From assembly GCA_000934665.2 (NCBI GenBank), contig JYFJ02000684.1, forward strand, positions 1 through 64,000: DNA of 64,000 nucleotides, given 5' to 3'. Positions 18,001 through 45,300 of the stretch are shown in pieces (positions within the stretch are counted from its first letter, which is position 1; each line of letters starts with the position of its first letter). The notes beneath the pieces were generated by a model. The model was not told the DNA's origin, ran no database searches, and was given only the letters and a program-made list of their open reading frames with translations. Source of the DNA: Catajapyx aquilonaris (taxonomy: Eukaryota). Made by a program: the position numbers and the translations under genes.

Positions 18001-18545
18001 GGCCAAGAAAGGGTCTGTTACAGCCGACATTAGGTGAAATGAGTCTGTTATATCAGGAGTGAAAATACGCAGGGCCTTTTGCTGGGATTGGCCTTTCGAG
18101 CCAGTTATAACTGAAAGTCCGTTATAGCCCGTCATATCTGGATTCAACTGTGTAAAAATTTGAATACATATTCGTTTTAATTGGCTCTCTTGACATGATA
18201 TTCCCGCAGAACATTGGCTTAAAGTCGAGTTAAGCGACTTACCTCCGGAACCTTGGCTATCTTCGGATCGTGGATAAACGCGCTTCCTCTTCCAGTGTTG
18301 GGAGGCATGTCTCCTGTCGTCACATACTTCAGGCACTCGATTATGGTCTGAAAATTTAAAAAAGCGTCACGTTAGACCCATGACCACACCGCAAGCAGCA
18401 GAGGTGCAATACGCACGGTCTTCCCGCATCCATTGTCGCCCAGGATGACAGTCATGGGTGAGAGGAAGGCCAGCTCCTGCCTGTTCACATCCCGCGGGCC
18501 GAAGCTCCTGATGCCCAGGATGCTCATCTTGTCCAGGGTCGCCAT
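9096..18545 (-). CDS. RAD50: DNA repair protein RAD50 (multi-exon)
   Basis: [17 protein letters not shown], Walker [24 protein letters not shown], long coiled coils, zinc hook CPLC (~11745-11756), signature MRGRCSAGQ, Walker [13 protein letters not shown]-loop IITHD; last exon [17 protein letters not shown] on minus strand at 8957-8962. Confidence 0.97.
14498..14862 (+). mobile_element. tRNA-derived SINE in a RAD50 intron
   Basis: A box TGGCCGAGATGG and B box GGTTCGATCCC in a tRNA-like head; (TAA)n/(TAAA)n tail; direct repeat AATAAATAAATAAGCT at 14482-14497 and 14863-14878. Confidence 0.85.
14935..16867 (+). mobile_element. Non-autonomous Helitron-like element
   Basis: 3' hairpin ACCCGGGCAACGCCGGGT (16840-16857) then CTAG (16864-16867) and T; candidate 5' end A|TCTTAATATATATTTTAGTTTGTTTG; 5' boundary less certain. 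Confidence 0.6.
15688..16614. mobile_element. Nested non-autonomous TIR element with ~110-bp TIRs
   Basis: 15688-15799 CAATTAATTCCTCAAGTTGG...CTCAAGAAAGCGT is a near-perfect reverse complement of ~16508-16614; internal (GAT)n at ~15873-15905; superfamily not assigned. Confidence 0.75.
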
Positions 18546-18581
18546 CTCCCACGCTTCTTGCTGCATGAGGAACCCAAAGAG

Positions 18582-18677
18582 GCAACAATGTACACCAACA
18601 ATGTAAAAGCAACGGCAACAATGTAAAAGCAACCATGTACAGCAACAATGTAAAGCAACAATGGGTAAAGCAACAAT
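18582..18677. repeat. Degenerate minisatellite (~GCAACAATGTAAA, about 7 units) in the RAD50 5'UTR intron
   Basis: Repeated CAACAATG(TA) units between the acceptor (~18561) and donor (~18706). Confidence 0.75.
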
Positions 18678-18834
18678 TAAGTCTGGAATGTAGGATCGGG
18701 CCTCACCAAACGGCCAGAAATCCGGTGTTGGAAGAATCCGGGCAGACTGGAGAACACACGGTGGCGGACGGAGAACAAATTGGAACAAAAGCGGCCGGCG
18801 GAATCAGAGAAAGAACCGTTTCAGATTCAGAGAA

Positions 18835-23280: not shown

Positions 23281-26245
23281 CTAAAGATGTCGATCAGTTT
23301 GCGCAGATGCACCCGATGAGTCAGTCTTCGTCCTTCCGGAGGCCACGAGGGGAGTGGACTCTCCGGGTCTGCTTCTCACGAGGCACCAACAACTCCTCCA
23401 GTGGTGCCAACAAGCGAAGAAAGTCGCCACAACCACAGACTGAAGCATGAAACAAAAAGTCATGAAATCATGAAAGCAAAAGCTGTCATATCCCATAGAA
23501 ACATACCATGAAAAAATTGAAGACACCAGCGATTGTGGTGGACATTTCAAATCCGTAGTGATCCACGAGGATACCACTTGTGGATGGACCAATCGTATCT
23601 CTGGAAGAGTGAAAAAAGCACGTCAAACTTGCCATTTCATGATGTCACCTCGCGTCACATTTACCCGAGGTAAAACATGGAGGACCACACACCCCCGATG
23701 ACGCTGTATGTCCCTATGCTGTCCTCCATGCCACCATCCCTGCAATAAGTTAAAATCACGTCTGTAGAATCTGATAATTTCTCCTTCGTTGACGTACTGT
23801 ATACTTGGCGTAATCTATGAAGGACTGGTAGGTCGGCACCAAAACCATGGCGCAGGTGACTGCAATGATGGCCAGGGACACCAGGTTCAGCCAGATGGTT
23901 CTGAGGAAACACAAGCTCTTGTAATTGGGTGGCCAGCTCCACATTGTTACGCCAACAATGCAACTGACTTGGGCAAGAAGTCCAGGAAACTCGAGGGTCC
24001 GATCAGGAGGAACCCAACAGATGAGAGTGCAAGTCCAACGGCCATGAGTGGCCAGGTACGATTCATGGCGTCTCCTATGGCGCCTACGATTGGGCATGAT
24101 ATGGCATAGATGCCTGCTGCCCACACGAAAAACAGTCCCAGGATTTGAGGTGACAGGTCAAACTGGAAGAATAAATTGGGCTTTGGGTCAACAGTACAAA
24201 GAGGTTGCCCGAAACTTCTTTTTCGACATAAGAACAAAAAGGACATGGTAACAAAAAGCACTGCGACAACCATGCTGAGCAATAGCATAATAAGATCTAA
24301 TGCAGCCATCTTTGATGCATATCAAAATGACATAAGTGTTTGGGAGGCTGCTCTATTTGCAGGTTTTCTGGCATTTGTTGCACATGACACAACTATACTC
24401 ACTTGCTGAAGATGTATGGCCAATGTAGGCTGCAGGTACGTCCAGATCAATGAGCCGAACATGGTCATGAACGCAATCACTACCGTGGGTGGGTGCTTGA
24501 AGAATGAAAATATGCTTCCACTCCTGGGGTGAGTTGCTTCAAATTGATAAAAAATATTACAAAATTGCACATGTAGATGCATCACAATCGAGGCATTGCA
24601 GTTTACTAACCATCACAGGCGTGTATTAAGCACGCCAGGCACGGGATATTTATCAGGATGATCGTTCCCAATGTAACAAACGGTGCTGGATATCCTCCCC
24701 ACTGGGAAGGACAGTCATGCATGTTTCATTGCGGCGCAATTAGTATCAGAGATTCTCAAGACAGTCTATACATACAGCGTACAGGAACCCTCCAATCCCA
24801 GGTCCTATGCTGAGACCCAAACCAATGGACATCTCCGTAACACCCTAAGGATTTAAAAGGGGCCGATTAATCGAGGATTCTGTTCGCTTTGCAGAGAAAT
24901 GTCTTACCATAATGGTTCCCATATTTTTGGGAAACATGGTGGCCATCAGCGTGATGGTCGATGTCAAAAAGGCGGCTGCTCCAAGCGCTTCCATGATTCG
25001 AACCAAAAAGCAAAACAATGTGAACAAAGTCAAGTTGTCCAGCTTGTCCAATAAACTAAGGAGAAAAAACTCAATGAGTAAGGGTGGAATTCAGAGGGAC
25101 CAACTTTTTAGGAAGAGTTTCAACTTCAGAGTGAAGAAGAAAGAAATGAAACGAAAAGAGTGGAAGCAGGTTATACCCAAAGAGAATGTTGCATACTCCA
25201 GAAAGGGCCAGTCCGGACATCATCACCCTCTTCAGTCCCAAATGAGGGGTCTGTGTATGTATAGCATATGATATCAGATTAATATGAATTTGAATAAGCA
25301 AATGTTACAGCCGTTCTCACCACTCACAATTTTGCCAAATATTGGGCAGGCCACGAAGTTGACCATCGCAAAACATCCGAACACCAGACCCGTCACTGAA
25401 GGACTCATTCCTTTCATCGCAGCCTGTTGATATTTTAGTGTCGTATAAGAGTTGCTGAGGTGTAATATCAGTATATGGCCTAATTAGGGAACTTATGGTC
25501 GACATTAGTAGATGAAAATAATTCATTTCTGTCGTATGTTAATCAAGATACACTTTACCACTTAACAGTATAGGGGAACAAAAGGATTATAGCTCTCAAA
25601 TAATTAGATATCCCGATCATTATAGCCTACTGTACGTGTAAAAACTGTTGGTGTACGCTCTCCATAATTATGTTACATTAATGCTGTATACTGTACAATC
25701 AGGTTCAGGAATGACCTTTCAATCCTTTCCACTCAGCAAAAAAAAATCGATGACTATGACTCAACACTTTTTGACACTCACTCTCTGATCTGAAATTGAA
25801 CTACCCTACACTATGATATCGTCATGTGGAAAGGATGTTCAGCTCCATATTTTTCAGGAAGAAAAATAATGAACTCCATCACCTTTCAAGTCAGACATGA
25901 CTGTCCATAGGAAAAACAATAATAATAACACTTCACTATGGAAAGATCCCGCCAAGTTGTGCAAATCCATATAGGTGACATCACATCATGTTAATGTTAT
26001 ACAGTGCGTGGGTGGTGGGGTGACGTCACTATAAAATGGATCAGACAGTGACAATAACACAAACTGACCTCCCCAGGGAAGAAGGGAGCCAGGACGGAGA
26101 GAGTGGCGAAGTTGAGGAAGTCCAGCCAGAGGATGGAGGCCACGGTGAGGACCTCCTTTCGAGAGAGGCTCCTCAGGAAGGAGATCACTCCGTTGCTCCT
26201 TGTCCTCTCGCCCGATCCGACATCATCGATGATGATGGCACCCAT
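23281..26245 (-). CDS. SLC18B1-like MFS transporter, copy B (12 coding exons, apparently intact)
   Basis: MGAIIIDDV...SVLAPFFPGE; FLVRIMEALGAAAF; GLGLSIGPGIGGFLY; WTYLQPTL; FLLIGPSSFL; GDTIGPSTSG; ends ...QTDRHL*; exon 7 needs an AAG acceptor. Confidence 0.88.
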
Positions 26246-26550
26246 CGCGTGCACCAACTGTGTCTGCTCACTATAAATAATATGACTGCTGCGAGACCTG
26301 GCTGGATTAGTCGATTCGTCCCCCAAACGGGTGATATCTACACGTTGACTTCCTGCCAGCAGCAATCATCAGCATGAGAATGTCAATATTTGCATCCAAA
26401 CCGCACATCTTCTGTACAATAATAAGAATTTATGACTCATTGTTGGATTGCATATACGTATCTTACAGGAAATCTTCCGGGACCATCATACCTTAGTATA
26501 ATTATAAACTTCAAATGTACCGGTATGTAATGCCAACACCAATTTCACTA

Positions 26551-26731
26551 CACTGTAAACCACAAAACATTAAAATAGCATCACTGGTGATCCTCGCATG
26601 GATCATCAATTTTTTGATGCTCTGTGATGCTTTTTAGAAACAAAAAAACATCCCATGAGCATTTGAAGAGCGTTAAAAATTGATGTTCCGACTCACTAGT
26701 GATGCTCACTAATGTTTTGCGGTTTACAGTG
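26551..26731. mobile_element. MITE with CACTG termini and TA flanks
   Basis: TA|CACTGTAAACCACAAAACATTA ... TAATGTTTTGCGGTTTACAGTG|TA. Confidence 0.8.
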
Positions 26732-26905
26732 TACTCTATTTTTTTCGCCTTAATCTACTTTTTGATAAGCAGTTACATTCAAAGCACAACGTAAGCATTA
26801 AATTCGAATAATTTATTGAAAGGGACATGAATGACACTTCGCCTCAACCTAATGTGATAGAAACTAATGACTTTAGAAGCCTCTGAAAGTTTATTATTAT
26901 TAGCG

Positions 26906-26971
<66 letters not shown>
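26906..26971. repeat. (TCA)n microsatellite
   Basis: About 22 TCA units. Confidence 0.95.
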
Positions 26972-27017
26972 CCATTACATCCAGTGCCATGTAACCCTCA
27001 AATTAATGAAAATCTAC

Positions 27018-27165
27018 CAGCACACATGTTGGAGTCCTCGACGGTCAGGTCCACAGAGATGTTTCCGCAGAGCAAAGAAGCGGAAGGCTTTTGAAATGTT
27101 TCCTGTAGCTCAACGAACTCTCTGGTATAGAACCGCGTGGAGTCGGCCCCAGTGTCGATCTTGAA
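27018..27165 (-). pseudogene. Isolated exon-like fragment, possibly from a trypsin-family serine protease
   Basis: Open frame IDTGADSTRFYTREFVELQETFQKPSASLLCGNISVDLTVEDSNMCA ending at a phase-1 donor G|gtag; no partner exons seen. Confidence 0.3.
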
Positions 27166-27418
27166 ACATCATAGGCATAGTAGACTAACCATACAACAAT
27201 AGGTCACTTTCGGAGATATATTAAAATATTGCTGAACATATTGACTGACAAAATACGTATTATGCGAATAATATCACGAATTGTAACAACGCAATTTTGG
27301 GGCGAAATTTTTAAATCAAGAGCTTCAGAGATTCAAAGTGGATGGTAGGCCTATACATGCTGATCAATTGTCCGGTTTTCTGGCACGGAAACAGACGATT
27401 CTGATGAATAACCTGTTG

Positions 27419-30400
27419 TCAATCAGTTTGCGTCAGTGTGCCCGAATCAGTCTTTGTTACTCCGGAGATCGCGATGGACGTGGATTCTCCGGGTTTGCTT
27501 CTCACGAGGCACCAACAAGACCTCCAGTGGTGCCAACAAGCGAAGAAAGTCGCCACAACCACAGACTGAAGCATGAAGAGATAAAAAATAAGAGTGCCAT
27601 AATTCAGTATAGCTGTGGCATTATCCTACATAGACACATACCATGAAAAGATTGAAAGCCCCAGCAATTGTGGTGGACATTTCAAATCCGTAGTGATCCA
27701 CTAGGATACCACTTGCAGACGGACCTATCGTATCTCTGGAAAAGAGAGAAAAAAAGCAAGTCATACTCGTCACGTCATTATGTCATCTCGCGTCACATTT
27801 ACCCGAGGTAATACATGGAGGTCCACAGACCCCCGATGACGCTGTATGTCCCTATGCTGTCATCCATGCCACCATCCCTGCAATAAGTTAAAACCACGTC
27901 TGTAAATCTGACAATTATTTACATCTTTAGTTTACGTACTTGGCGTAATCTATGAAGGACTGGTAGGTCGGTACCAAAACCATGGCGCAGGTGACTGCAA
28001 TGATGGTCAGGGACACCAGGTTCAGCCAGATGGTTCTGAGGAAACACAAGCTCTTGTAATTGGGCGGCCAGCTACACATTGTTACGCCAACAATGCAACT
28101 GACTTGGGCAAGAAGTACAGGAAACTCGAGGGTCCGATCAGGAGCATCCCAACCGATGAGAGTGCAAGTCCAACGGCCATGAGTGGCCAGGAACGATTCA
28201 TGGCGTCTCCTATGGCGCCTACGATTGGGCATGATATGGCGTAGATGCCTGCTAACCACACGAAAAACAATCCCAGGATTTGAGGAGACAGGTCAAACTG
28301 GAAGAATAAATGATCCATATCAAAATTACACAAGTGTTTGGGAGGCTGCTCTATTTGCAAGTTTTCTGGCATTTGTTGCACATGACACAACTATACTCAC
28401 TTGCTGAAGATGTATGGCCAATGTAGGCTGCAGGTACGTCCAGATCAATGAGCTGAACATGGTCATGAACGCAATCACTACCGTGGGTGGGTGCTTGAAG
28501 AATGAAAATATGCTTCCACTCCTGGGGTGAGTTGCTTCAAATTGATAAAAAATATTACAAAATTGCACATGTAGATGCATCACAATCGAGGCATTGCAGT
28601 TTACTAACCATCACAGGCGTGTATTAAGCACGCCAGGCACGGGATATTTATCAGGATGATCGTTCCCAATGTAACAAACGGTGCTGGATATCCTCCCCAC
28701 TGGGAAGGACAGTCATGCATGTTTCATTGCGGCGCAATTAGTATCAGAGATTCTCAAGACAGTCTATACATACAGCGTACAGGAACCCTCCAATCCCAGG
28801 TCCTATGCTGAGACCCAAACCAATGGACATCTCCGTAACACCCTAAGGATTTAAAAGGGGCCGATTAATCGAGGATTCTGTTCGCTTTGCAGAGAAATGT
28901 CTTACCATAATGGTTCCCATATTTTTGGGAAACATGGTGGCCATCAGCGTGATGGTCGATGTCACATAGGCGGCTGCTCCAAGAGCTTCCATGATTCGAA
29001 CCAAAAAGCAAAACAACGTGAACAAAGTCGAGTTGTCCAGCTTGTCCAATAAACTAAGGAGAAAAAAACACAATGAGTAAGGGTGGAATTCAGAGGGACC
29101 AACTTTTTAGGAAGAGTTTCAACTTCAGAGTGAAGAAGAAAGAAATTAAACGGAAAGAGTGGAAGCAGGTTATACCCAAAGAGAATGTTGCATACTCCAG
29201 AAAGGGCCAGTCCGGACATCATCACCCTCTTCAGTCCCAAATGAGGGATCTGTGTATGTATAGCATATGAAATCAGATTAATATGAATTTGAATAAGCAC
29301 ATCAGATGTTACAGCCGTTCTCACCACTCACAATTTTGCCAAATATTGGGCAGGCCACGAAGTTGACCATCGCAAAACATCCGAACACCAGACCCGTCAC
29401 TGAAGGACTCATTCCTTTCATCGCAGCCTGTTGATATTTTTTTTATGTGTTGTAAGAGTTAATGAGGTGTAATATTAATATAATGAGAGGAAACTTTGGT
29501 CGACATCAGAAGATAAAATCATTTCCATACGATGTTAATAAAGATTAAAGATGCACTTTATACAAACAGAAACAAACGGATTACAGCTCTCAAATAATAA
29601 TAATTATTAGATATCCTCATCATTATATCGTGTAAAACCTGTTGCCGTGTGCTCGCCGTAAAATAATGTTATAATAATTTTATTAGCAGGCTACTCTACA
29701 TACCGGTACTGTACTACATGCGTACATTACATTCAGGTTTACGAGGCCATCAGTGCCTTGCAATCCGAGGCCACAGCTGTCTGCTGAACTACTGTGCTCA
29801 TACAGAATGTTGCAATTGAGTCCCCATTTAGTTAGCAACCTTTTGCTTCAGAGCTGCTTATAGTAAGCAAGTAAGAAGTCATTTTTAGTATACCCTCAAA
29901 AGTATCAGCTACTAATGGGCAATTCCACGTGAACGTGGCCACCTTTTGCACGAAAAAATTTGCCCGTCGATGAGTGTGAGATATGTTTGAGTCCATGTCA
30001 AGTCATGACCTTTCCCATAGGGATTTGGTCCGCCGATGCGTGGTTGCCTATCTACAGGCGCTAATTGCACTTGGATCACAGTTAGAGGCGCCCCCCTATT
30101 ACATTTACATGACAACGTAAATGCATGATGTAATACATGTTTCATGTGTGAAATTGTCTCCTCTTTCCGATGAAAATAGTCACTTTCCGATAGCTGTGCA
30201 AATTCATGTCACAAAGCGAGATTTTTGCAAACAAATGACATTTTCAACAAAAGAGCCAAAGTCAAATGTCATCGCATTGATATCAAAATACACCTCCCAG
30301 TGTCCTCTATCAGTGGTACAAACGGAATTTTGGAATACGAAATGGTTACGGAGCTATAGGTACTGACGTGGAGCGCTGCGCTAGTGGCCACGCCGCTGAA

Positions 30401-32417
30401 TGAAAATGAGCGGCCCACCTAGGTCCGTCTTCATGTCTCAGGTAGTGTACGCTTGTCATTTGTGTTTAATTCAATTAATAATATAGTTAATGTAGTTATA
30501 GTTTTAATATATCTAGAAATAGTTCCAAATAAATTTGGTCCGCTACTGGGCAATTCCACGTGAACGTGATCACCTTTTGCACAAAAAAATCTGACCATCG
30601 ATAAGTGTCAAAGTGTGAGGAGATATGTTTAGGTCCATGTTAGAACCTTTCGCATAAGAACTTGGTCCGCTGATGCGTGGTTGCCTCTCTACAGGCGTAA
30701 ATTATTGTACTTTGATCACATTTACACGACAATGTAAATGCTTGATATGATACAAGTTTCATGTGTGAAATTGTCTCCTCTTTTCGACAAAAATGCTAAC
30801 TTCCTGACAGATGTGCAAATTCATGGCAAAAAGCGAGAATTTTGCAAACAAATGAAATTTTCGAAACGAGAGGCAAAGTTAAATAACATCAGTCATCACA
30901 TTGATATCAAAAAATTCCTCATAGTGTCCTCTATCAGCCATATACAAACGGAATTTTGGCATACGCAAGGGTTACGGAGCTATAATCACTGACGTGGAGG
31001 GGTGCAGGAGCGCAATATATTCCATTATAGTGAAAGCAAGGGGCCCGTATGGATCCGCAAGGAATTCCGTACAGGCCTCAACAGTGAACATTCATTTGGA
31101 CTGTGACTAGGAACGAATAGAGGAATGAATATAAATAAAAAGTATACATGTTTCTCTATTGTAAATAATAATCAAGCATATTTTAACACACACTTGACAC
31201 TTGTGAAAATTGAAACTGTGTTGAACATGACAAGGGAATTTTCATTTATTCTTACTATTCTATGGTAAATTTTTTTGAACTATATTATTAAGTGAATTAA
31301 ACACAAAGGACAAGCGTACACTACCTGAGACATGAAGACGGACCTAGGTGGGCCGCTCATTTTCATTCAGCGGCGTGGCCACTAGCGCAGCGCTCCACGT
31401 CAGTTCCTATAGCTCCGTAACCATTTCGTATTCCAAAATTCCGTTTGTACCACTGATAGAGGACACTGGGAGGTGTATTTTGATATCAATGCGATGACAT
31501 TTGACTTTGGCTCTTTTGTTGAAAATGTCATTTGTTTGCAAAAATCTCGCTTTGTGACATGAATTTGCACAGCTATCGGAAAGTGACTATTTTTGTCGGA
31601 AAGAGGAGACAATTTCACACATGAAACATGTATTACATCATGCATTTACGTTGTCATGTAAATGTAATAGGGGGGCGCCTCTAACTGTGATCCAAGTGCA
31701 ATTAGCGCCTGTAGATAGGCAACCACGCATCGGCGGACCAAATCCCTATGGGAAAGGTCATGACTTGACATGGACTCAAACATATCTCACACTCATCGAC
31801 GGGCAAATTTTTTCGTGCAAAAGGTGGCCACGTTCACGTGGAATTGCCCTAATATTGGTTAGATATTAATGACTTAATATACTTCTCTAAACTTGAGCTT
31901 TGGTAAACAGATGATCGTAACTCAAAATGAAGCGTATTTATAATATTAACATTGATCATGAAGTGATTAACAGTGGTCGTCCCGTATGACATTTCAGTTC
32001 TTGGCTATGAAAATTGCAATGACGATTGCGGACTCCCTTAGGAAATTAATTATGAAATTATGCAGGTGGGTATAGCCGGAGAGAGAACAACACATCTGGC
32101 AGGACATCATGATTGTGTAGCAAAAGTACCATCCATAATCAAATGACACACAGTCTGCGCTTGCACCTGGATTGCGATGCTATGTGCATTATAATCAGTA
32201 ATACACTATACATACATACATACATTCATACATTTCCTTCACGGCATATTCCCATCAAGATGGGGTTACCAGCGATGACCAGGTAGGCCTTACAGTCCAC
32301 CTGGTCATCTCGAACGACCAGTATAATGAATCCTCTGGTGACTGGTCAGGCCACGCAGAGGATATAATGAATATGATACACTATAATAATAATAATAATA
32401 ATAATTATGGTCCTGTG

Positions 32418-32448
<31 letters not shown>

Positions 32449-32974
32449 GGTTTAATGGCGCAACAGCAGCAATAGCTATACTGCGCCAAGCACCTGTGAC
32501 GTTGTAGGGCAGGGCAGGCAATACCACCCCAACCCCAACGTTAATGGTCCTGTGAAAAGGATGTTAAACTCCATATTTATCCTCTGATGCTCTGAAGCTC
32601 ACCCTCCAAGACTATAATAATTATATAGCGTGCATGAATCATTAAACAAAGAATTTTGTCTACATTGAGAGATGGTTCACTAGAAAGATCCGCCAAGTTG
32701 TGCAAACCCATAGGTGACATCACGTCATGTCATAGTGTGTGTGGTGACATCACCAAAATCACTAAAATGGATCCAACAGTGATAATAACAAACTGACCTC
32801 CCCAGGGAAGAAAGGAGCCAGGGAGGAGAGAGTGGCGAAGTTGAGGAAGTCCAGACAGAGGATGGAGGCCACGGTGAGGACCTCCTTTCGAGAGAGGCTC
32901 CTCAGGAAGGAGATCACTCCGTTGCTCCTTGTCCTCTCGCCCGATCCGACATCATCGATGATGATGGCACCCAT
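27419..32974 (-). CDS. SLC18B1-like MFS transporter, copy C (recent duplicate of B; intron 1 expanded by TEs)
   Basis: Same exon chain as B, near-identical DNA; ends ...GTLTQTD*; ATG at 32972-32974. Confidence 0.85.
29917..31849. mobile_element. Non-autonomous long-TIR DNA transposon, Sola2-like
   Basis: ~560-bp near-identical TIRs (29917-~30480 and ~31286-31849) beginning GGGCAATTCCACGTG; 4-bp TSD TAAT (29913-29916, 31850-31853); GRG termini, 4-bp TSD and very long TIRs fit Sola2; no transposase ORF. Confidence 0.85.
32208..32350 (-). mobile_element. Probable truncated LINE/SINE 3' tail
   Basis: Minus strand: stem-loop CCCATCTTGATGGG, then AATATGCCGTGAAGGAAATG and a (TATG)n tail; no TSD identified. 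Confidence 0.4.
32418..32543 (-). mobile_element. 5'-truncated non-LTR retroelement tail
   Basis: 11-bp TSD ATGGTCCTGTG (32407-32417, 32544-32554); stem-loop TGGCGCA...TGCGCCA, ATTAAA and (AATC)n tail on the minus strand. Confidence 0.8.
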
Positions 32975-33082
32975 CGCGTGCACCAACTGTGTCTGATGCT
33001 CACTATAAATAATATGACTGCTGTGAGACCTGGCTGGATTAGTCGATTCCTCCCCCAAACGGGTGATATCTACACGTACGTG

Positions 33083-33269
33083 ATGAAGGAATCTTTACGA
33101 CTTGCTTTGTTTTACTTGCAAGTGTCGCAATTTGTGTTCTAGTTGTTACAGCTACACACAACACATGCATGTTACATACTTCTGAAATATGTGGAAAAAC
33201 CTTCTTTCGCCCCGTGACCACTACGGGCCTCAGGATCCACCAATACCCAGGATTCTTCGACATGTATCT
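33083..33269 (-). pseudogene. Duplicated fragment (most of one exon plus the following intron) of the neighbouring TTLL9-like gene
   Basis: Near-identical to ~35240-35424 (TGAAGGAATCTTTACGACTTG...GACATGTATCT); encodes RYMSKNPGYWWILRPVVVTGRKKVF. Confidence 0.9.
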
Positions 33270-33862
33270 GATTATTTGGTATATTATTATTATCACTGTT
33301 GGATTATTTATTGAAAGGGACACAAATGACAATTCGCCTCAACCTAATATTATAGAAACTAATGACATTAGAAGCCTCGGAAAGTTTTCTGCCGTTAAAT
33401 TGAAAAGTCACCCTGCACCATATTATTCAGGGAGTTACATTGCCTAATATTTTATTACATCATCCATATTGCATTTGGCACCATATAACATGCCTATACT
33501 GTATTATTGTCATGGACACAGTCATCATGTAACTGCAAGGTTATTGATGATTATAATTATTAATAGTGTGGCGGGTGTAATAACTCGCGCAATAAAAAAA
33601 CAACATAAACGGCACTTGTGCTGTCGCTACATCACAACTCAGCATGACAGAATCCTGAAGAAACACACAGAAGACGTAATGCATGACATCGCAATATATT
33701 TTATTTCTTCCACACTGTTTCGACACACTTTTAAATTAATATATCGTCCATCGTTTTACGCATATATAAAAAAAAATGTTACATAATAAAATATGCTGTG
33801 GTGTACACTGCCGATTCTTTTCTTCCTCTTCCTACATGATTTGCCAAAATTCCATTCCATCG

Positions 33863-36800
33863 TCATCGCAGCCTGGCCTTGTGCTTGAGCAGCTTCAGAT
33901 TCATCACCCTGTCTTTGATCCCTTTGCCTGATCCCACCGAGAAAAGAGGAGACAAATAATTAATAGTATATGTAAAGTGCCACCAAACATTTTGCGTTCA
34001 GCAGTGCCCAATTGTGGTGCAGGATGAAAAGTTGTGGACTACTTTCTCCAGCAGTTTGCTGGAAGTGAGGATTTATTTTTAATCAGCAAGCGTCTCTCAC
34101 CAAGATGCGTAGGGGGCATGAAGTGCGTGCCTGTGAAGCAGCTGTAGTGCTGCTGCTTGGTCAGTACACAGGGCACGGGTCCATCCCTCCAGATCAGATC
34201 GAAACCACCAATGCGATTGGCCGACTTATTCGTCCTGCAAAGTAAAAACAAACTAAAGCACAATGCGCAACAAAAAACTGACCACTTGAAATGAGGTCGG
34301 TGACTCCCGTACTACTGTTTGACCTGCACCCACCTGTACTTTCGTTCCAAGTCCAGTATGTTGAAGCAGTCGTGCAGAATGGCTCTCTGGAGGAAGTTTT
34401 CTCCGAGCTGCAAGTTGTCGAACGTGGGGATCTTCATGCTCAAGAACCACCTGCCGAAGACAGAAAAAAATGCCTCGAAAAAAAAATGGTTATTAGAATA
34501 AACTCGGATGGCGGCGGCTCACGGTTTCTTGTCCTTGTCTAACATGACGTCGAATGTGTAGAGGGCGAAGGACTGCCTGGTCTTCTTGCTGGTGTCGGCC
34601 CTCAGGCTGAGGAGGACGTTCACCACGACGGCGTGCACCCGGTGCATCAGCTCGTCCACGTTCCAGGACTTGTCCGACATGTTGGTCAGGACCGTGCGGA
34701 TCTCGCTCAGAGACGACTGGAGTTTCTGACCGATCAAACAAAAAAAAAAGGGTCAGTCGGAAACGGAGTCTGAAAACAAACAAACAAACAAACAAGAAGC
34801 CAGACCTTTTTCTCCGACTCATCCAACCCTTCCTTCGGAAACTCCGGGTCTGTGATGTGTGCCTGTGGATACCTCAGGTTTCTCTGGGTGTACCTGGCAC
34901 CAGCGTAGTGCGCCAAGCCCTCTCGGTACACCCACACTTTCAGAGGGTAGTACTGTGGGTTTGGAAGGAAGGAAAAAATAAATAAATTTCGTACACAAAT
35001 CAGACAAAATTAATTTGAAATGACGAACCGACCGATTCGACCATGACGTAAAGGGTCATGTGGAACTTGCGCCTGCCAATCAGCATAGGGTTCTCGATAT
35101 ACCGTTGCACGATGTAACTCGGTTTCTTCCTCCGGACGTACCGGTCGTTGTGCGGCCTGCAGTCGGGACAGGAGCACGTCATCGTCTTCGGGATCCTCCT
35201 CACTTCTCCTGGACTGAATTATGAAGAAAGAAAAAAAAATGAAGGAATCTTTACGACTTGCTTTGTTTTACTTGCAAGTGTCGCAATTTGTGCTCTAGTT
35301 GTTACAGCTACACACAACACATGCATGTTACGTACTTCTGAAATATGTGGAAAATCTTCTTTCGCCCAGTGACCACTGCGGGCCTCAGGATCCACCAATA
35401 CCCAGGATTCTTCGACATGTATCTCATGAGTTGGCAGTACTCTTGCTGGAAACATTCATTGGTGACTGAATATACACCCACATTATGGCAATTACAAGTG
35501 TCCGTCCAGAAAGTCAGCTCAGAGCTCCTCTCGTCCTGACCTCAGATTTCTAACCGAGCTGCCGGATGCCGACCAGTGAGATGACTTTCTGGAGCAACTG
35601 TTGCAGAAGGAAAAAAATTACCGGAATTGCAAAAGTCGGCGGAAAGAAGTCCACCATATCCATCAGTAGCTTGGGCGACAGGTTATTCAGCTGCAACCTG
35701 TAAAAAAAAACACCACAAATTCTGTATGGTGGACATAAAACAGGAGTGTTAGCGTCCCTCATGTGTCGCTTACTGGTATTCCTTGAGGCACATCAGGAGG
35801 CTGAACTTGGAGAGGACCACGGAGTGCGTCTCGAAATGGGAAATGTGCTGCGACTGCTTCAACTGGTGGTTCTTCAGTATGTCCTTGGCTACGCTGTAAT
35901 CGTCCCAGTGAATGTTCCAGTCTTCGCTCGTCGCGTGGTACACCTGAAAACTTGCACAGTATACACCACAACCGCATGTTATGTATAACGTGTGACTGAC
36001 TTTTTCCCATCCTCTGTCCTCCAGCACTTCTGCGACCAAGGGAGACGCATCGCTGCAGATGTAGCACAGCCTGTTTGGAGCCTTCTTTCTCCTGAGCCGT
36101 CCCTCCTTCCTCCTCATCACTTCCTGGAGGTAATTCTCCAGGAAGTGCTTGTCCTCCGTGTCCTCATCCAGGTTCACGCTGTCCATGTCGCTCTCTTCTT
36201 ATGTATATACAGAACCAATATTAGTGGACATTTGTCATTTGTTTAGTCATTTATTTATTTACTTATTTATTTATGTATTTATTTATTTATTTTCAAATTG
36301 TGAATTGGTTAATATCTACATAAATTACTGTAAAATGGTAAAAGGGTAAGAGTTTGTGCTATGTAAACTTGTTTTGTAGGGGCAACTCCCCCTCGGCAAA
36401 AGGTATTGTACCTTAGAAAGGGTAATAAATAATAATAATAATATTAGTGGACAAAAATGGTCAGACTTATTGAGAGGATCTTACCGGACGAGGAATTGGG
36501 GACGTGACCCACTGTCTTTGACCTCTGACTGGACTTGTTTTGTTTCCCTCTGACCTGGTCGTGGCTGGTCTTGACCCGCCTCCTCGTGGGCCTCAACTCC
36601 TCGCACGTGTCCCTGAACTCGTCGCCCACGTTCTCGAACATCAGAGGCACGTGCTGTCCTGTGATGGTCAGTTTCGAGGTGTTTTGGGTCAAATGGAACT
36701 CCTCTACCAGTGTTTCGTACGACGTCGGATGCCTGACCGGCCAGACGTACAGAGACTGCCTTCCTGGTACTGGATACACGGGATTCGTCCTGTCGGTAAG

Positions 36801-38238
36801 ACGGTCCAAGCTGATGGCGATCGCAGTGGAATTGCAGAACTTCATGTGGGTCTTGGACTGCCTGAAGCTCAAAGGAATCCTCTGCTTCCCGGGTGACTTG
36901 ATCCGTCCGGGTGACCATCCTCTGCTGTCCACACCCTTATTATTATTTCTACTCTGAGTGACGAAACCTGGCGGGAAGTCCTCCCCCGGGATCAGGTCGG
37001 AGATGATCACGCACAGCCTCATCTTCTTCTGCTGGGGACAATATAATATTAGCAAGTGATTCGAGTCGACGTTTCAGGATACGTACCTTTTCTTCACTCA
37101 CGACGATTTCCGGCGGCGGCAGACACACATGCCGAACTGGACCAGGTTCCGCCACCTTCTTCGTCGGTTCCTGTTGTGGTACCTCCAGCACAGGAGTCTC
37201 GTCGTGCGATGGCCTGACCAGCAGCAGAGGTGCTGCTCTCTTCGGCGTGTCCTCCCAGCACTTGGAGTACAGGAAGTTGATCTCGGTCATCTTTCCCTTC
37301 AGGATCTCCAGAAAGTCCTCCCTGGTCCTGGACGTGGCCATGCACCTGAACCTCCTCAGAAGGTCGGTCAGATGCGAGCAGACGTTGATGCAGGTGACGG
37401 CTCCTTCCTTCCTTCTCTCCCAGATTATTCTCTTGATCTTCGCAGTCACAAGGTCCAGCAGCATGTGGTGCTCTTCCAGGTTCAACTCCTGATCGACTCG
37501 GACATCCGCTTCAAACAGGACGTCCAACACCTTCATAATGTCGGAGATCACAAAGGCGCGGGTGTCCACTCTGACGCAGCAGGGCAAATGAGCAATCTGC
37601 GGTGGTCCAACCGCAGCTTCCTCCTCTGGTTCTTCCATGTCTTGTACCTTGGTGATGGAGGCCTCAGAGTAGGACCTCATTTGACGTGGAGACATGATGA
37701 CGTGCGTGTTGCTCTTGACTGGCCTTCCTCTGGTCGGATACCTCTTCTGTCCATGGTCTCCTTCACTGCTGTGGGTAGCCCTTGAGATGGTCAGGTCGTG
37801 CTCCTTCCCTACCTTCATGGTCCGCACCATCAGCTCGGAGGAGTACGAGTTGCTCAGGAGCGACTCCAGGTCGCTCTGCATCATACGGTACTGCTTGGAG
37901 AACTTGGTCATGGACAACCAGTCTACTGATGGGGCATCTGGCTTCTTCGGAGGAGCTGGATCTGGAGGCGGCTCATCCCACTTCCCGTTATCCTGAGGAT
38001 TGGCTAGGCCGCTGCTTTGTCTCTGCAAGTTGCTCTTGTTGAACAGCGCACGGAACAGGGTGGCTGTCGTCTCAGACTGGTCGGGTATGGTCAGGATGAA
38101 GTTGGCCGAGAGAGGCTGCTTCGGGTTGAATCCGGACGATGCCCAGTCCACGGCGTCCCTCTTCCCCACCTGCGATGCCATGCCCCTCTCACAAGCATGT
38201 ATACAACAAGGCTGAGTGGCTGTGGAAACAAGCTTCAT
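33863..38238 (-). CDS. TTLL9-like tubulin-tyrosine-ligase-family protein with degenerate active site and long N-terminal extension
   Basis: Exons give RGWEK..EDWNIHW, HISHFETH, DFFPPTFAIP, KNPGYWWILRP, YIVQRYIENPMLIGRRKF, PLKVWVYREG, FDVMLDKDKKPW, and TTLL9-like RIGGFDLIWRDGPV and THLG; stop at 33863-33865. Start may be 38238 or ~38181; the join of upstream exons (38238-37087, 37031-36485) to the TTL domain is in frame but uses an AAG acceptor. Confidence 0.8.
36231..36439 (+). mobile_element. 5'-truncated non-LTR retroelement tail in a TTLL intron
   Basis: 14-bp TSD AATATTAGTGGACA (36217-36230, 36440-36453); ends in AATAAA and (TAA)n. Confidence 0.8.
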
Positions 38239-39303
38239 TGTTCCGGTAAATAATTATTGTTGACCGTCTCATAACAACATTGTAATGGGCTGTAAGAGAA
38301 TCATTATTACAAGACAAGAAGCACTGATGTCGCAAGTGTCAAACTGACCTGAAAAAGAAAATGCATGAGTAGGTACGGATGAATACTTAAAAAAAAAAGA
38401 CAAGTCCAGTCTACACGCATGTATTCGACATCCTGTTAATTTTTTAATCCATATAATAATTATGAACAGTTATCTGTTTTAAACACTACCAGAAACGTGA
38501 ATAATGGAAATCCAGCAAAAAGGTTACCATTGGAGATAAGTTCACAGAGAGTTTATTTACACAGACAAATTTATTTACGTCCTCCTCTTTTACACGTAAG
38601 TAAACTCCCCCTCCCTCCCACTCCCTCTTCCGATTGTCCAATCTTGGCTCCAGACAACTTATACGAACACTACTTGTACACGGGAAATGAAGCGTCGGTC
38701 GCAATGTTACACTAGCAGGTTTTTAAAAATTGCGACCACCTGTTTACCCCCGACAACGGGTTCTATGTACATACAATCCGGCTAATACGTGGCATTGACA
38801 CATTCTCTCTCTCGCTCTCTCTCACTGGTTCACACTTCACACACACACCATGATTGCTCGAACACTTCCAGCTATGACAGGTCCAAGAGCAGACGTATAG
38901 AAGCGTAAATGAAACCTTTGTACTGACCCCTTTATGCAATTGCACCGATGATGGTGGGAATAGGGAGGGAGGAAAAATATTTAATAAAAACTCAATACAC
39001 GTAAAAAAATGTATATGGTAGACACAAATTGCTACGTACGTTAACATCGGGTTGAAAAAAATGTTACGTAGTATTGCGTCCACTTGCAAAGCAAAAAAAA
39101 AAGTTCTTATGGCCATTGGAAGAGTAGGTGGGTTTGGGTTAAATCAGCAACAGGTTCAGACACGCACGTTTCCTAAACATTTACATATTTTTTTCTTTTT
39201 TCCCCCATCGATTTCCACATTATGAATGGTCGAGTGTTGAAATGTAACATGAACAAAATTGGGAGAAACAAAAAAAAAAAAGCACAACAATTGGTCTTTC
39301 ATC

Positions 39304-42300
39304 TCACTTCGGACTGGATGAGTCAGGCATTGGAATGTCCTCGATGGGTAAAGGAATTTCGTCCATTTTAGGGGCGACTGGCTCTTCCTTCTTTTCTTCC
39401 GCCGCAGCTTTGGTTTCTCCGTCCGAGGCCTTAGGTCCACTGTCAGAGCTGCCCGATTTGCCCTCAGCAGCCTCCTTGGATCTGGAGTCAGACCTGTCTG
39501 CCTTTGACTCCTTGGACCGCTGCGATGAGTGTGAACGTGACCTGGATCCAGACCGTGACCTTGACCGTGACCTTGACTTGGACTGAGATGGCGATCTGGA
39601 CCTGGATGCAGAACGTGATCTGGAGTGATCACGACGATATCCCCACACCCGCCTCTTGCGAGTGTCCCTGTTTCGGTCTCGATCTCGGTCTCGGTCTCTG
39701 TCCCGGTCTCGAGCTCCCCTGTCTCGATCCCGGTCCCGGTCTCGATCCCGCTCCCTATCCCGATCTCTGTCACCACGATCTCTGTCCCCTCTGTCCCACC
39801 TGTTGCCGCTCCGGCTGTTGCGTTCCCAGCGGCCGGAAGTACTGCCTCTCTCCCACCTCCTGCCTCGCCATGGAGCAGCTCCCTTGTTGCGGTCTCCGTC
39901 TCCATCGCGTCTCCACCTCCCGCGATACTCGTCCCTCCTGCCTGGAGGTGACCCCTGCGGAGGTACCACTGGGGGTGAGACGGTAGAGTAACCTTGTTGC
40001 TGTGGCTGTTGTGGTGGCCCCTGTGGCGGCGGCTGGGGTCCCCCTTGTTGCGAGTAGTTGAATCTGGTCTGATATGCGAAGACTGGTGGTGGTTGCGGAG
40101 GTGGCCCTTGGAACGGTGCTGGACCAGGTGGAGTACTACCAGTTGAGTATGGTGGGAAGTGACCTTGGGGTGGAGGCTGTTGCGGGGGAGGTGGGTATCG
40201 AGTTGAATAGGAGACGTATGAGGAGGGCGGGTACTGCACTGGGGGTCCTTGCGGAGGTACCATGGGTGGTGGGCCGTGTGGGCCCATGGGAGGTGCGCCA
40301 TGAGGTCCCATTGGTGGTACCCCGTGATGCGGAGGCACCATGGGCAGACCTATGGATGTGGAAGGCATGGGTGGGCCTCCATGAGGGACCATTGGTGGAA
40401 CAACTGGTGGGCCAGACATGGCTGGAACAGGTGGTGGCGCAACATCAGGCATTGATTCAGCTGGTTTTGATGGAAACTCCCGCTCCATCTCGGCAGCTTT
40501 CCGGATCAATTCCGCATCAGACAAGCTGCTCAGGCTGCGGCGAGCTTCAGCGGCTACTTTGGCAGCCTGGGTGCTGCTCGGAGCGGCCACTTTGGCTGCA
40601 GCTGCCCGCTGGCTCCTGGGATCACGCGAAACAGGCTTCGCAGGCTCCGGCTTCTCAGCCACCTGCTCGGTTGGGGCCGCAGCATTCCTCTCACTCTCCT
40701 TCTGCCTGATGCTGGCCAAAATTTCATGCAGGTTAGGCGGAAGAGATATTCCAGCAGCATCCAAGCTGAACTCCCCGGTAGGAGCCCCAGGCGCTGTGGT
40801 TGGTGGAGTGAACGACCTGGACGGGCTGTATATCTCATCCTGAGTGGGTGTGACTGTGCTCCCCGTCTCAGGATGAATGATCCTTGATATACTCTGCAAG
40901 AGATTACTCAGCTGCGGGGCTTCAGAAACTGGCGCAACTGTTGCTGGGGCCTTGGTTAGTGCGCCGGCCATGGTCTTGATTTGCTGCTTCTCCTTTTCAA
41001 TCTTACGGTTGAGTTCCTCCAACAAGCGCTTCTGCTCTGAGGCACCGTCACTGGTGCCCTCATCATGATCCAGGTGGACATCAATATCGCTGTCGGGAGC
41101 ATCGTCGTCACTGTCTCCAGGGCTGTACGGCTCATCTTCTTCACCCAACGATGGGGGAGAAGTGGCAGAGAGACCACTCAGTGGCAAAGGTGGCGGTGGC
41201 GGCGGAGGTTGTTTCCTCTTGCGTTCAATTGGTGGCGTTGTTGATCTGGTTTCGGACAACTGTGGTGGAGGTCGTGGGGGCGTGAAGCTTCGGGAAGACC
41301 TGTCACCCTCGGAGGTGCTACCTCCTGGCAATGGTGGCGTGTAGCTGCGTTCAGGCCGTTCTGCAAGAGATATTGGGATTACAGTGGAACAATTTGCGTT
41401 TGAACACACCTCACTATAAGGAAATACCAAACCGTCGACTGCCTCACCTGTCTCCATGTCCTTGGCCAGGGCTTGGTAGTCGATCATCTTTCTCCGGGTC
41501 TTGGTGGCTGGCTGGTAGGACAGTTTCCCCTTTGCTGCCCTTTTAGTGCCAGTGCTCCCACCCGGAACCCGACTTCTTATGACAATACCCAGCAGCATGT
41601 GCGGCCGGTAGTCCTCAAATCCTGGGCCATCGAGTGGAAGCAATATCTGTGGAATTGGGCTGTGGCTGGCCAGAGGGAGTATGTAGAAGTCCTTGACGGC
41701 AGATCCCAGACTACCCACAACTCCAAACCGATTGCGGCTGGACAAGTAGGTGTAGAAGGAGATGTAGGCGACCTTCTCCTCCTCATTTGCAGGCTGAAAT
41801 CGCACCACCAAGATCTCTTTGGTGCCAGACTTCTTCATCTTTCCGACATAGTCCCACACCGTCTCTGGATTTATTCGACCCACAACATCAATTACAGGTT
41901 GAAGCTCTTCGCCAAGAAACTCTGCTTGGCCTGACACCTCATGGGCAGTGACTCTGAATTTGGCCACGTCCGCCATGTTGATGTGACCATTCCACACCTC
42001 AGGTAGCGAAAAGTCTTGAGGGCTCTCTTCGGTAGTGTCTGGTGTTCTGGAACAGGGAAGAATTTTCAAAAAACATAACTTCGGCACCAAACACTATCCT
42101 CTCTTTCCCACCAAAGTAATGACATATCACATGCTTTTTACATTGTGTAGTCCGGAGACCAGCCAATGATCTCTGAAATGTTTCTAAAGAACATGCGATG
42201 CTTCATTCCTATTTAGTTCGGTAAGCTAAATAGTACTTACTTGATGATAACAGTTGACGATGGCTCCTTGTCGCATCCGTCACTGTCCTCGCTCATTCTC

Positions 42301-45300
42301 ACCTCTCCACCCGTCTCGACTAATCCAGCCTTTTCCGCGTTGGTCCCTCCTCCGCCTTCTTCGTCCTTTTCAGGCACCACTTGCGGCTTCTCAGTCTGAG
42401 GCTTTTCCCTTTTGTTGACCTCCACCGTCACTTTCGCTTTCCCTTTCTTATCCTTCTCCTTGCTGCTCTTCTTCTTTTCTTTGTTGTCTCTCTTCTCCTT
42501 TTTGTTTCCGTCCTCCTTGCGACTGCTGCTCTTGTGCTTCTCCTTCTTGCTGTCCTTCTGTCGCACGGACGTGGAAGAAAGGCCACAATTAAAACACACA
42601 ATTGCAGGGTCGAAGTAACAAACAGGGTGGGAAGCTCGTAATATTATTAACTTGAACAAATCTTGAAAACCACAGCTATGGCCAACTTTCAACAGACTTG
42701 CCTTGTCCTTGGTTCTCTCCTTCTTATCCTTCTCCGAGGCTGACCCAGAGCTGCTGCCACCCTTCACTCCCTTGCTGCTTGATCCCTTTTTCTTGGTGCA
42801 CACGGAGCAGTTAAGGTCAAAAAGGTGGTTGGCATGGTCACTCGTGGTGTCTTGAAGCAGCTCCGAGACTGCAGGAGGAAGTGCCACGGAGGATGACAAA
42901 TCAGCGCCTCCAACGGGCGGGAGAAGTTCAGGCTTGGCCTCAGGAGGGGCCACTCCTCCGTCCTTCCCATCCAGCAGCTTCAGGGAATCGTCCTTCTCGA
43001 TCACGTGCTCTCCCTTGTGGGTTTTCACCACTAAGGTGTTGCTCATTGCCAGCAGCTCCAGTTCGTTCTTCTGAATCATCTCCAGTTGCTGTTAACGAAT
43101 AAAATGTGATGAACTAAATGCAGGTGTGTCTCACACTACAGCAACACAGTATTTGACGGCATATAAGACGCCCCAAAAGTAGCTCAAAAAATCGCATGTA
43201 TGCCCATGTGTGTCATATGCCGTCATGAAAAGTGGACACTCACATGCTTGACCTCCCTCTGCCTCCACTCGGCCAGCTCCTTTGACGCCATCTCCTCTGG
43301 GCTCATCTTGACTAACTGATCAGGGGTCACATGCCCCTTGAGGATCTTCCTGAAGAGGCCAGGGTTTTTCTTGTCCTTGATGTTGAACACCAGGCTGCGG
43401 TGGCGGCTCTTGTACTTCCCACTAGTCCCTCCAAAGTGGGAGTAAAGGCTGTCCTCCACCGACTCCACAATCTTATCCACTTCTTCCTCCTCCATTGTCA
43501 GGTCCTCGCTCTCGGCAATTCTGTCAGAGTAACAAATGTTGGTTGGCTTAAACATTACAAAACCAATGGCGAATATGGTACCGAAGATTCAGTGAATACG
43601 ATGCAATCAAGTTAAACTGTGGTTCCACCTGGTGTAACAAGCACACAATAATGCTCATATTTTTCTCAACGTCATACTTGATACCACTTAGTAACATGAG
43701 CATACCAATCACAATGTAAGTTTACCAACAGGTTGCAACAGAGTTAAAAAAAAAACGAAACCTTTCCGAAAGGCCAGGTCCGGACCACTTCACGTAATGC
43801 TACACTTCATAACATCAAAAGTCTCATGTGGCTCCATACTATCATAATTTATAACTAGGCAATTATAGTGCACACATTCGAAATTTGTCTAGCCTCCATC
43901 TACGACAAAAAATGAAAGCAATTTGCCATTTGGACATATTATCTTCTGCATCAAATGTAACCTAGGCAGCAACGAAAAATTAAAGAGAAAAATAAAAATG
44001 CAACAAAAGAAAAATAGCCAGTACTTTATTAACACCTTTTATTGCTTACAGTAATTTTGTCGTCAGCGTAATATCACAACTTGTAAGTTCCATACCAGGA
44101 ATTCCACTGCAAAAAATTGCCTGCGTGCATCTCCGCCACATATGTCGAGTGAACTTGGAATCACCTTACTGTCTCAAATGGCACATTGCATAAGCATCTA
44201 TGTCAATGTGTGGCACATGTCTACATTTAAGTAAATCTGTCGCCTTAAACCGATAAAGGAGCAAACACCAAGATTTCCACAAATCCATGCTAGCCATGCT
44301 TTCGTTGCAACCTGGAGTAAACTTACACTGCCTCAGGCACACATGTGAGTAAAAAGAGTTCAATTGCAACCTTGCAATAAGGGCATCCTTGAGCATCTTC
44401 TTGACGCCTGGCCTGACTCGTTCGGATCCCTCCCTCCCATCCTCGTCTGCATCGGAAGCGTCTGCGGAGCTGCTCCTCTGCATCGCAGCTCCTCCCTTGA
44501 CTGGAGATCCACCTACCTGAGGCTTGGACCCAGAAGACATGGTACGTCCTCTGGGTTTAGGTGGAGGTGGAGTGAAAGCAGGGGTGGTAGGGGTGGACAA
44601 AGGAGAAGAGGATGTTGCACCCTGTTTTACTGTCTGGACCGGTTGCGGTGGTGGTTTTGCTGGCACTGGTTGGGACAGCACTTTCAGCACTGTCGGTTTT
44701 GTTCCGGGTGGTTTCTTTGGACTTGAGTAGGCGGGGGAAAAAAAACTAGTGTTTACTTGCAGTCTTTCCACATTAATCAGTGATTCCCAAACTTTTTGAC
44801 CCAGACCCCTCAATTTACGTCTAAGATGTAGAGCTATTTCGTTAGGCAAGAAATGAAAAATATGGCTCACCCATAAAACTTGTTTGTAGGATGCAAGACG
44901 CTGGGTCCGAGAATTTCAAAGGTTGGATGCAACTTGAGCCACTTCTCAAGCGTATCCTGCGTGGGTGCCCTCGGACCACGCATCACTCGCCCACTTTTGC
45001 GCTCAAAGACCAAGACCCTGCGCTCCATTGGCGAAGTCGAGGCGGGAGATGGACGTGGGTTTTGTGCACCTTTTTTGGATGGATCAAGCGTCTTCCCGGA
45101 ATCCGTGGAAGGTGTCTTGGTAAGAATCTTGGAAGCCGGCTGGGCTGAGGAAACAGTGCGCAACACCGGGCGTCCTTGCTGGAGGCCTCCTCTGCCTTTC
45201 ATCCCAATGGGAGCGCCACCTTGACGAGTAGCCAATGTTATTTTGGTGCCAGGGGGGTGAGGCACTGGAGAAGAAGTCTGCAGCGTCCTCTTTGCGACAA

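Follow-up and report, generated by a model that had tools for sequence, protein, structure and literature searches.

A TTLL9-derived gene of Catajapyx aquilonaris with a degenerate ligase active site: a candidate pseudoenzyme

Overview

A gene related to TTLL9 was characterized in a window of Catajapyx aquilonaris DNA (the whole stretch analysed, 64,000 nucleotides). It probably encodes a TTLL9-derived pseudoenzyme, i.e. a non-catalytic derivative of TTLL9, as this is what best fits a frame, splice sites, a codon bias and a hydrophobic core that are all kept while residues that do not vary among the compared TTLL9s are replaced. The ancestor would be the axonemal tubulin polyglutamylase TTLL9, and selection would long have acted on the gene to preserve a folded TTL-like protein, not catalysis. 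Non-catalytic relatives of modifying enzymes are often regulators, decoys or readers; among TTLLs, TTLL12 alone is usually considered in such terms. A dead derivative of TTLL9, which is the glutamylase dedicated to motile axonemes, would help to understand how levels of polyglutamylation are adjusted and could reveal which parts of TTLL proteins bind tubulin tails or partners independently of catalysis.

Gene structure

The gene comprises ten exons on the minus strand (36186–33863), which were located with the help of splice signals, homology and open reading frames. Its CDS (1389 nt) consists of 462 codons followed by TGA and is interrupted by nine introns of 57–176 nt, which all (9/9) show GT-AG borders. 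Exon 1 (36001..36186, ATG at 36186–36184) encodes residues 1–62, the start of the N-terminal domain, to which the TTLL9 N-terminus aligns; its donor is AAA/GTCAGT. Exon 2 (35774..35943) encodes residues 63–119, including K108 (codon 35808–35806). Exon 3 (35622..35697; residues 119–144), drawn from the gene model and the TTLL9 alignment, carries DFFPPTFAIP. The degenerate phosphate-binding strand and loop (R165, G171, R172 and K174) are encoded by exon 4 (35336..35445; residues 145–181). Exon 5 (35033..35213; residues 181–241) is the best-kept one (VQRYIENPMLIG), even though KFDxR is replaced there by KFHMT (H232 and T234). Exon 6 (34806..34952; residues 242–290) encodes GLAH (H256) and HITD (H273, T275 and D276), and exon 7 (34523..34725; residues 291–358) encodes Q293 and D349. 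The motif PWFLSMKI, with S362 and K364, lies in exon 8 (34334..34450; residues 358–397) together with Q379. Exon 9 (34101..34234; residues 397–442) keeps the TTLL9-type C-terminal motif GGFDLIWRDGPV, and exon 10 (33863..33927; residues 442–462) ends with the stop codon TGA (33865–33863). An AATAAA hexamer read from the sequence on the same strand (33700..33705), 158 nt past the stop, is a candidate polyadenylation signal.

An earlier note on this DNA had described an intact spliced frame spanning 33863..36198. The frame holds, since no stop occurs within the 462 codons and all nine introns are of the GT-AG type. Of the two ends, 33863 is indeed the last base of the stop codon, while 36198 is only the first codon past the upstream stop, the ATG being located at 36186. 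Several donors are weak (GTCGGT, GTCTGG and the AA/GT of exon 4), so that single exon borders were inferred from homology and frame alone. A 43-nt micro-exon in intron 3 (near 35550–35600) was considered and rejected as unneeded, because the junction of exons 3 and 4 preserves the frame and the joined exons align to TTLL9 without any gap.

Affiliation with the TTLL9 subfamily

The TTL domain of Pfam (PF03133) matches three of the nine ORF pieces, the six others having no match. Exons 5 (40.4 bits) and 7 (22.6 bits) exceed the cut-off (20.1 bits) and exon 6 (19.6 bits) falls just under it; exon 4 shows neither a Pfam TTL match nor a TTL match in PDB. The spliced model gives a best E value of 1.4e-60 by BLASTP against TTLL9s, with a highest identity of 34%.

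Two sets of proteins were assembled for a comparison in which TTLL1 is the only outgroup. P0011, a canonical TTLL9 fragment from the exhaustive exon 5 search described below, retrieved 120 TTLL9s, many of them so named by their source, and a TTLL1-like fragment retrieved 120 TTLL1s. The TTLL9 set includes 104 of 119 proteins, named or unnamed, of 420–475 aa and the TTLL1 set includes 57 proteins of 400–460 aa; P0246 was left out of the sets since its source names it TTLL9. Among the matches listed, the closest named relatives of P0011 are choanoflagellate proteins and canonical members share 49–73% identity with it, compared with at most 34% between the model and TTLL9s.

The model scores 245.9 bits on the TTLL9 profile (n=104) versus 139.3 bits on the TTLL1 profile (n=57), i.e. 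a difference of 107 bits. TTLL1, the catalytic subunit of the neuronal polyglutamylase complex, represents the sister subfamily, which likewise consists of short single-domain TTLLs working in complexes. In the tree built from the model with 16 TTLL9s and 15 TTLL1s, the branch that separates the two subfamilies is fully supported (SH-aLRT 100) and has the model on its TTLL9 side. The descent from TTLL9 that had been proposed from the sequence is thus upheld by both the profiles and the tree, and the alignment to TTLL1, TTLL9 and Pfam TTL that had been suggested as a check favours TTLL9, with PF03133 matched in exons 5 and 7. The model (462 aa) is also of the same length class as TTLL9 (Chlamydomonas TPG1 and animal TTLL9; 420–475 aa), with which it has VQRYIENPxLIG and the C-terminal GGFDLxWxDGPV in common. 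The motif GGFDLIWRDGPV of the model aligns to the TTLL9 consensus GGFDLMWNDGPV. This C-terminal motif is not known from TTLL1.

The terminal branch of the model is extremely long (8–10 changes per column versus medians of 0.18–0.22), and TTLL1 proteins reach a median of 420 bits on the TTLL9 profile, above the 246 bits of the model. Its placement on the TTLL9 side and its score under the TTLL1 median indicate that the predicted protein is a TTLL9 by descent, yet more altered than an ancient paralogue. This acceleration is specific to the TTLL9-like gene, as the neighbours (genes for eIF3d, RAD50, a PHF3-like PHD/TFIIS/SPOC protein, an aldehyde dehydrogenase and MFS transporters) show an ordinary conservation (155 bits to human PHF3 for the SPOC domain and 96 bits for eIF3d).

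How this derivative arose is a separate question. The trees do not settle its position inside the TTLL9 clade and a second TTL-family gene was not found in the 64-kb window, two points that speak for the model being the sole TTLL9 orthologue of its lineage, degenerated in place (for example if motile cilia were reduced), and not an extra paralogue. Such an origin would be compatible with a pseudoenzyme; we nevertheless regard it as somewhat unlikely. The 104 proteins compared, from choanoflagellates up to vertebrates, show a high conservation of TTLL9, the neighbouring genes have undergone no general acceleration and the local duplications indicate that copying on the scale of genes occurs here, none of these three objections being decisive.

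Coding capacity and conservation of the fold

By its frame, its splice sites and its GC3, the TTLL9-like locus is best read as a real protein-coding gene. None of 20000 mononucleotide shuffles of the CDS remains open, and 462 open codons have a probability of about 1.6e-8 at the stop rate of the gene's own introns; the chance origin of so long an open frame is very unlikely. The GC3 of the CDS (0.78) is far above the GC content of its introns (0.41), in a window with 45% GC, and is comparable to the GC3 of eight Pfam-confirmed coding stretches of neighbour genes from the same window (0.51–0.80, pooled 0.67). The gene therefore codes like the real genes that surround it.

The predicted protein matches the TTLL9 profile in a single piece (positions 19–428 of 434); its insertions are short, and just two deletions affect well-filled columns. 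Of the 141 columns with hydrophobic residues in at least 90% of TTLL9s, 117 are hydrophobic in the model as well (minimum 113 and median 140 in canonical TTLL9s), the overall proportion of hydrophobic residues in the model being 41%. The retention of the fold that had been proposed earlier is supported by this core and by the full-length profile match, and the segments cited in its favour, VQRYIENPxLIG and the C-terminal motif of exon 9, are both present. The replacements at conserved columns are also milder than random ones (mean BLOSUM62 score of -0.40 versus -1.44, sd 0.18; 0 of 5000 draws as high), in a control that takes no account of the structure of the genetic code. The pI of the model (9.43) is above that of all 104 TTLL9s (median 8.53, maximum 9.14).

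These features bear on the possibility that the locus is an unexpressed or recently silenced pseudogene, i.e. that a long-diverged TTLL9-like protein lost its expression or function too lately for stops or frameshifts to have accumulated. This seems unlikely for a gene with a frame of 462 open codons, nine intact pairs of splice sites out of nine, a GC3 at the top of the range of the real genes in the window and a hydrophobic pattern held at 117/141 columns. Judged on such sequence features, the simple long-term decay of a TTLL9-like gene can be considered as excluded, a very recent silencing being possible. What speaks for the latter comes from the surroundings of the gene and from the searches for orthologues. 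A broken copy of the 3' part of exon 4 and of intron 4 (33083..33279, minus strand, 197 bp, 95% identical) lies 600 bp downstream; a 1-nt insertion breaks its frame and its donor GT is lost. As this copy lies amid segmental duplications, the locus appears to be in flux. A comparison of exon and intron differences in this copy was rejected as a test of selection, the differences being too few. Furthermore, no more than about 260 bp separate the ATG from the point where the upstream ORF ends, a narrow space for a promoter.

Exon 5 retrieved no orthologue from the libraries searched with it (representatives and metagenome contigs). A word-index search for homologues of this exon gave five candidates, none at E ≤ 0.001. 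An exhaustive HMMER search of 1.84 billion representatives gave 15 matches, 13 of which belong to the TTL family according to Pfam; the degenerate motifs are absent from the matches that were examined by sequence, all of which are canonical. Likewise, the scan of metagenome contigs detected 24 loci, all (24/24) of canonical types. None of these 24 loci combines the D-to-H and R-to-T changes of the KFDxR motif, and one of them (L011) carries D-to-H alone.

Degeneration of the active site

The alignment with 104 full-length TTLL9s contains every motif change that had been listed when the gene was first described. WIMKP of TTLL9s is replaced by WILRP in the model, SQGKGIF by TGRKKIF, KFDIRVY by KFHMTLY, GFARFS by GLAHYA, HLTNVA by HITDPE and PWLIEVNASPS by PWFLSMKI-PT. 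Sixteen active-site columns were considered, each of which shows no variation among the 103–104 TTLL9s without a gap at that position (a single row is gapped, at three columns). The model keeps only four of them (K108, H273, T275 and D349), the 12 others being changed (R165, G171, R172, K174, H232, T234, H256, D276, Q293, S362, K364 and Q379). Some of these changes are conservative ones (K to R and N to D).

The roles of these residues are known from active enzymes. Equivalences with TTLL6 residues were deduced from the alignment of P0133, a canonical TTLL9, to TTLL6 structures (E value of 1e-43). D314 and E327 of P0133 were equated with residues 318 and 331 of TTL from the end-point of the alignment (335 to chain position 339), assuming that there is no gap. 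In TTL, Asp318 and Glu331 hold two Mg ions and the E331Q mutant is reported to be catalytically dead (PMC3563685). The model keeps the first of these Mg ligands (D349) and has S362 in place of the glutamate and K364 in place of the next asparagine, Glu and Asn being found in 103 of the 104 TTLL9s (the other row is gapped); the strand that should carry the Mg glutamate (FLSMKI) contains no acidic residue.

According to the study of TTLL6, K174 binds the alpha-phosphate, K125 the gamma-phosphate and T263 the ribose, and the beta-phosphate is bound by N264 and, through their amides, by Q180 and G181; the transferred phosphate is held by two arginines, R219 and R241, the latter of which also holds the donor glutamate, and the side chain of this glutamate is held by K283 and K377. 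In the same study, the K174A, K125A, N264A, K283A and K377A mutants show background activity (bioRxiv 10.1101/2020.06.07.139295). The equivalents of K125 and T263 are kept in the model (K108 and T275). The rest of the phosphate-binding set is replaced (K174 by R165, Q180 by G171, G181 by R172, G183 by K174 and N264 by D276), R219 and R241 correspond to T234 and H256, in columns that are Arg in all 104 TTLL9s, and the two donor-glutamate lysines K283 and K377 correspond to Q293 and Q379. The assignment of Q293 to its column is the least certain one, because this residue is located at an exon junction beside three lysines (KKK).

Over the whole alignment, 135 columns show a conservation of at least 95%; the model keeps 67 of them, versus 107–135 for canonical members. 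It keeps 4/16 of the active-site columns and 63/119 of the others, which is a marginal excess of loss (Fisher p = 0.06). The catalytic residues are therefore unprotected and, if anything, are lost more often than others; as read from the alignment, this pattern is the opposite of that of an active enzyme. The claim that the ligase site is dismantled is thereby corroborated, by comparison with both the 104 TTLL9s and the TTLL6 residues that are needed for activity. An alternative source of the missing residues was also sought, as exons restoring the metal-binding ExN would speak against a dead enzyme. No alternative exon restoring the canonical motifs was found in the 64-kb window by tblastn with seven canonical TTLL9s, which matched the modelled exons and the broken copy of exon 4, everything else having E ≥ 0.85.

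That the protein is still an active, highly diverged ligase, with substitute residues for ATP and metal or with another substrate, is very improbable: K108, H273, T275, D349 and the adenine-side strand VQRYIENP are kept, R165 might stand in for the alpha-phosphate lysine, D276 might touch the metal and the high pI would suit acidic tails, but 12 of the 16 columns that do not vary among the canonical TTLL9s examined are changed, the Mg glutamate is a Ser in a strand devoid of acidic residues, both transferred-phosphate arginines are Thr and His, two phosphate-loop glycines are Arg and Lys, and, as reported, single Ala changes at five such positions abolish TTLL6 activity (bioRxiv 10.1101/2020.06.07.139295) and E331Q kills TTL (PMC3563685).

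Possible role of the proposed pseudoenzyme and comparison with known systems

If the gene encodes a TTLL9-derived pseudoenzyme, its mode of action can be viewed as follows. Devoid of the glutamate and asparagine at the sites of S362 and K364, of the two arginines, of the phosphate loop, of the beta-phosphate asparagine and of the two lysines, the protein would form no acyl-phosphate and would carry out no ligation. Since the adenine-side strand VQRYIENP, K108, T275 and D349 are kept and the protein is basic, it may still bind the acidic tails of tubulin as well as a nucleotide moiety. Its most likely role, which is speculative, would be that of a partner or competitor, devoid of catalysis, within the system of ciliary or flagellar polyglutamylation, where it could occupy tubulin tails or the TTLL9 partner FAP234/LRRC9 and leave tubulin unmodified. 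Canonical TTLL9 works as part of a complex; its partner there, FAP234, is reported to stabilize it and to carry it into flagella (PMC3873882). A more detailed scenario, which we put forward as speculation and consider rather doubtful, would be that of a writer of the tubulin code turned into a non-catalytic binder. With its adenine pocket kept and its surface more basic, it would attach to tubulin tails or to FAP234/LRRC9, in motile cilia or the flagella of sperm, and thereby set the amount of polyglutamylation that the true enzyme can carry out; it might be co-transcribed with the upstream gene, operon-like, or fused to it.

The ATP-grasp TTL fold would be common to the model and to the active glutamylases TTLL6 and TTLL7 (PDB 6vzt and 4ylr) and to TTL (4i4t). 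Canonical TTLL9 matches the structures of TTLL6, TTLL7 and TTL with E values of 1e-43 to 1e-21, whereas the single short exons of the model reach at best 0.052 (exon 5) and 0.3 (exon 6) in PDB, and the TTLL6 catalytic set is mostly missing from the model. TTLL12 represents another subfamily, an ancient one that has an additional domain at the N-terminus, while the model is a single-domain TTLL9 derivative. The likeness between them, compared by description alone, is that of non-catalytic TTLLs, as proposed here for the model. TTLL12 has been proposed to be a TTLL pseudoenzyme, since in the description given by its source it has a TTL fold and no detectable glutamylase or glycylase activity but still has cellular roles (PMC10883266). 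The structural sperm pseudoenzymes of insects, to which the gene had been likened at first, provide an analogy only. A limited literature search on TTLL9 pseudoenzymes and inactive TTLL paralogues returned no description of a TTLL9-type pseudoenzyme.

Other features of the window

The 434-aa ORF located upstream of the gene has no match in Pfam, Atlas or PDB, and a search of the whole window with Rfam gave no match. The X-box (RFX consensus) was rejected as a sign of ciliary regulation, as 12 matches with at most one mismatch were found for 10.8 expected; none of them is located upstream of the ATG, one being situated in intron 4. The best PDB match of the neighbouring eIF3d gene is 5k4b, which we take to be an insect protein and which comes ahead of the human one.

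Junction between the upstream ORF and the TTLL9-like gene

The TTLL9-like gene is preceded on the same (minus) strand by a gene located at 36447-39143, whose large ORFs encode 434 aa and 209 aa and which has no match in Pfam, PDB or Atlas. The upstream ORF terminates at 36447, leaving a gap of only ~260 bp to the ATG of the TTLL9-like gene. A GTAAG donor-like site (36484-36480) lies upstream of this ATG, and an AG is present at 36199-36198; splicing between them would fuse the upstream frame in phase with the TTLL frame. The upstream ORF and the TTLL9-like gene could conceivably be linked by co-transcription, trans-splicing or fusion. Several AATAAA motifs are found at ~36240-36300 on the coding strand of the TTLL9-like gene, and an AT-rich block is bracketed by two copies of a 14-nt direct repeat (AATATTAGTGGACA, + strand reading; 36217-36230 and 36440-36453).

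Partial exon-4 copy and segmental duplications

A partial copy of the TTLL9-like gene, in the same orientation, is located ~600 bp downstream of its stop codon (33083-33279; 197 bp, 95% identity). It spans the 3' part of exon 4 and most of intron 4, its frame is broken by a 1-nt insertion and the donor GT is gone. The surrounding region (23288-33387) harbors a tandem segmental duplication with a unit of ~4 kb, whose duplicated blocks are 23288-25604 and 27417-29598 (89-94% identity), 25932-26345 and 32676-33077 (90%), and 26808-26892 and 33303-33387 (91%). The exon-4 fragment is found only in the second unit, between its last two blocks. An inverted pair (29917-30488 and 31849-31278) shows 99% identity, and a third copy of its sequence lies at 30543-31005 (78%). 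A weak MFS_1 signal was detected inside the duplicated region, at 23950-24321.

Library matches to exon 5

The best library matches to exon 5, the best-kept exon of the TTLL9-like gene, include four very long proteins (P0002, P0005, P0007 and P0010; 745-1515 aa) that each carry two to five tandem TTL domains. One of them also carries a fused DEAD-box helicase and another a fused GNAT acetyltransferase.

Genomic context

The neighboring genes encode eIF3 subunit D (6130-6477), RAD50 (9212-18803), a PHF3-like protein with PHD, BRK, TFIIS_M and SPOC domains (39307-47893), an aldehyde dehydrogenase (56840-58519) and an MFS transporter (61157-61714). The genes are tightly packed, which, together with introns of 57-176 nt in the TTLL9-like gene, is indicative of an invertebrate with a compact genome. 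The closest solved structure to the eIF3d of the window is entry 5k4b, the human protein ranking behind.
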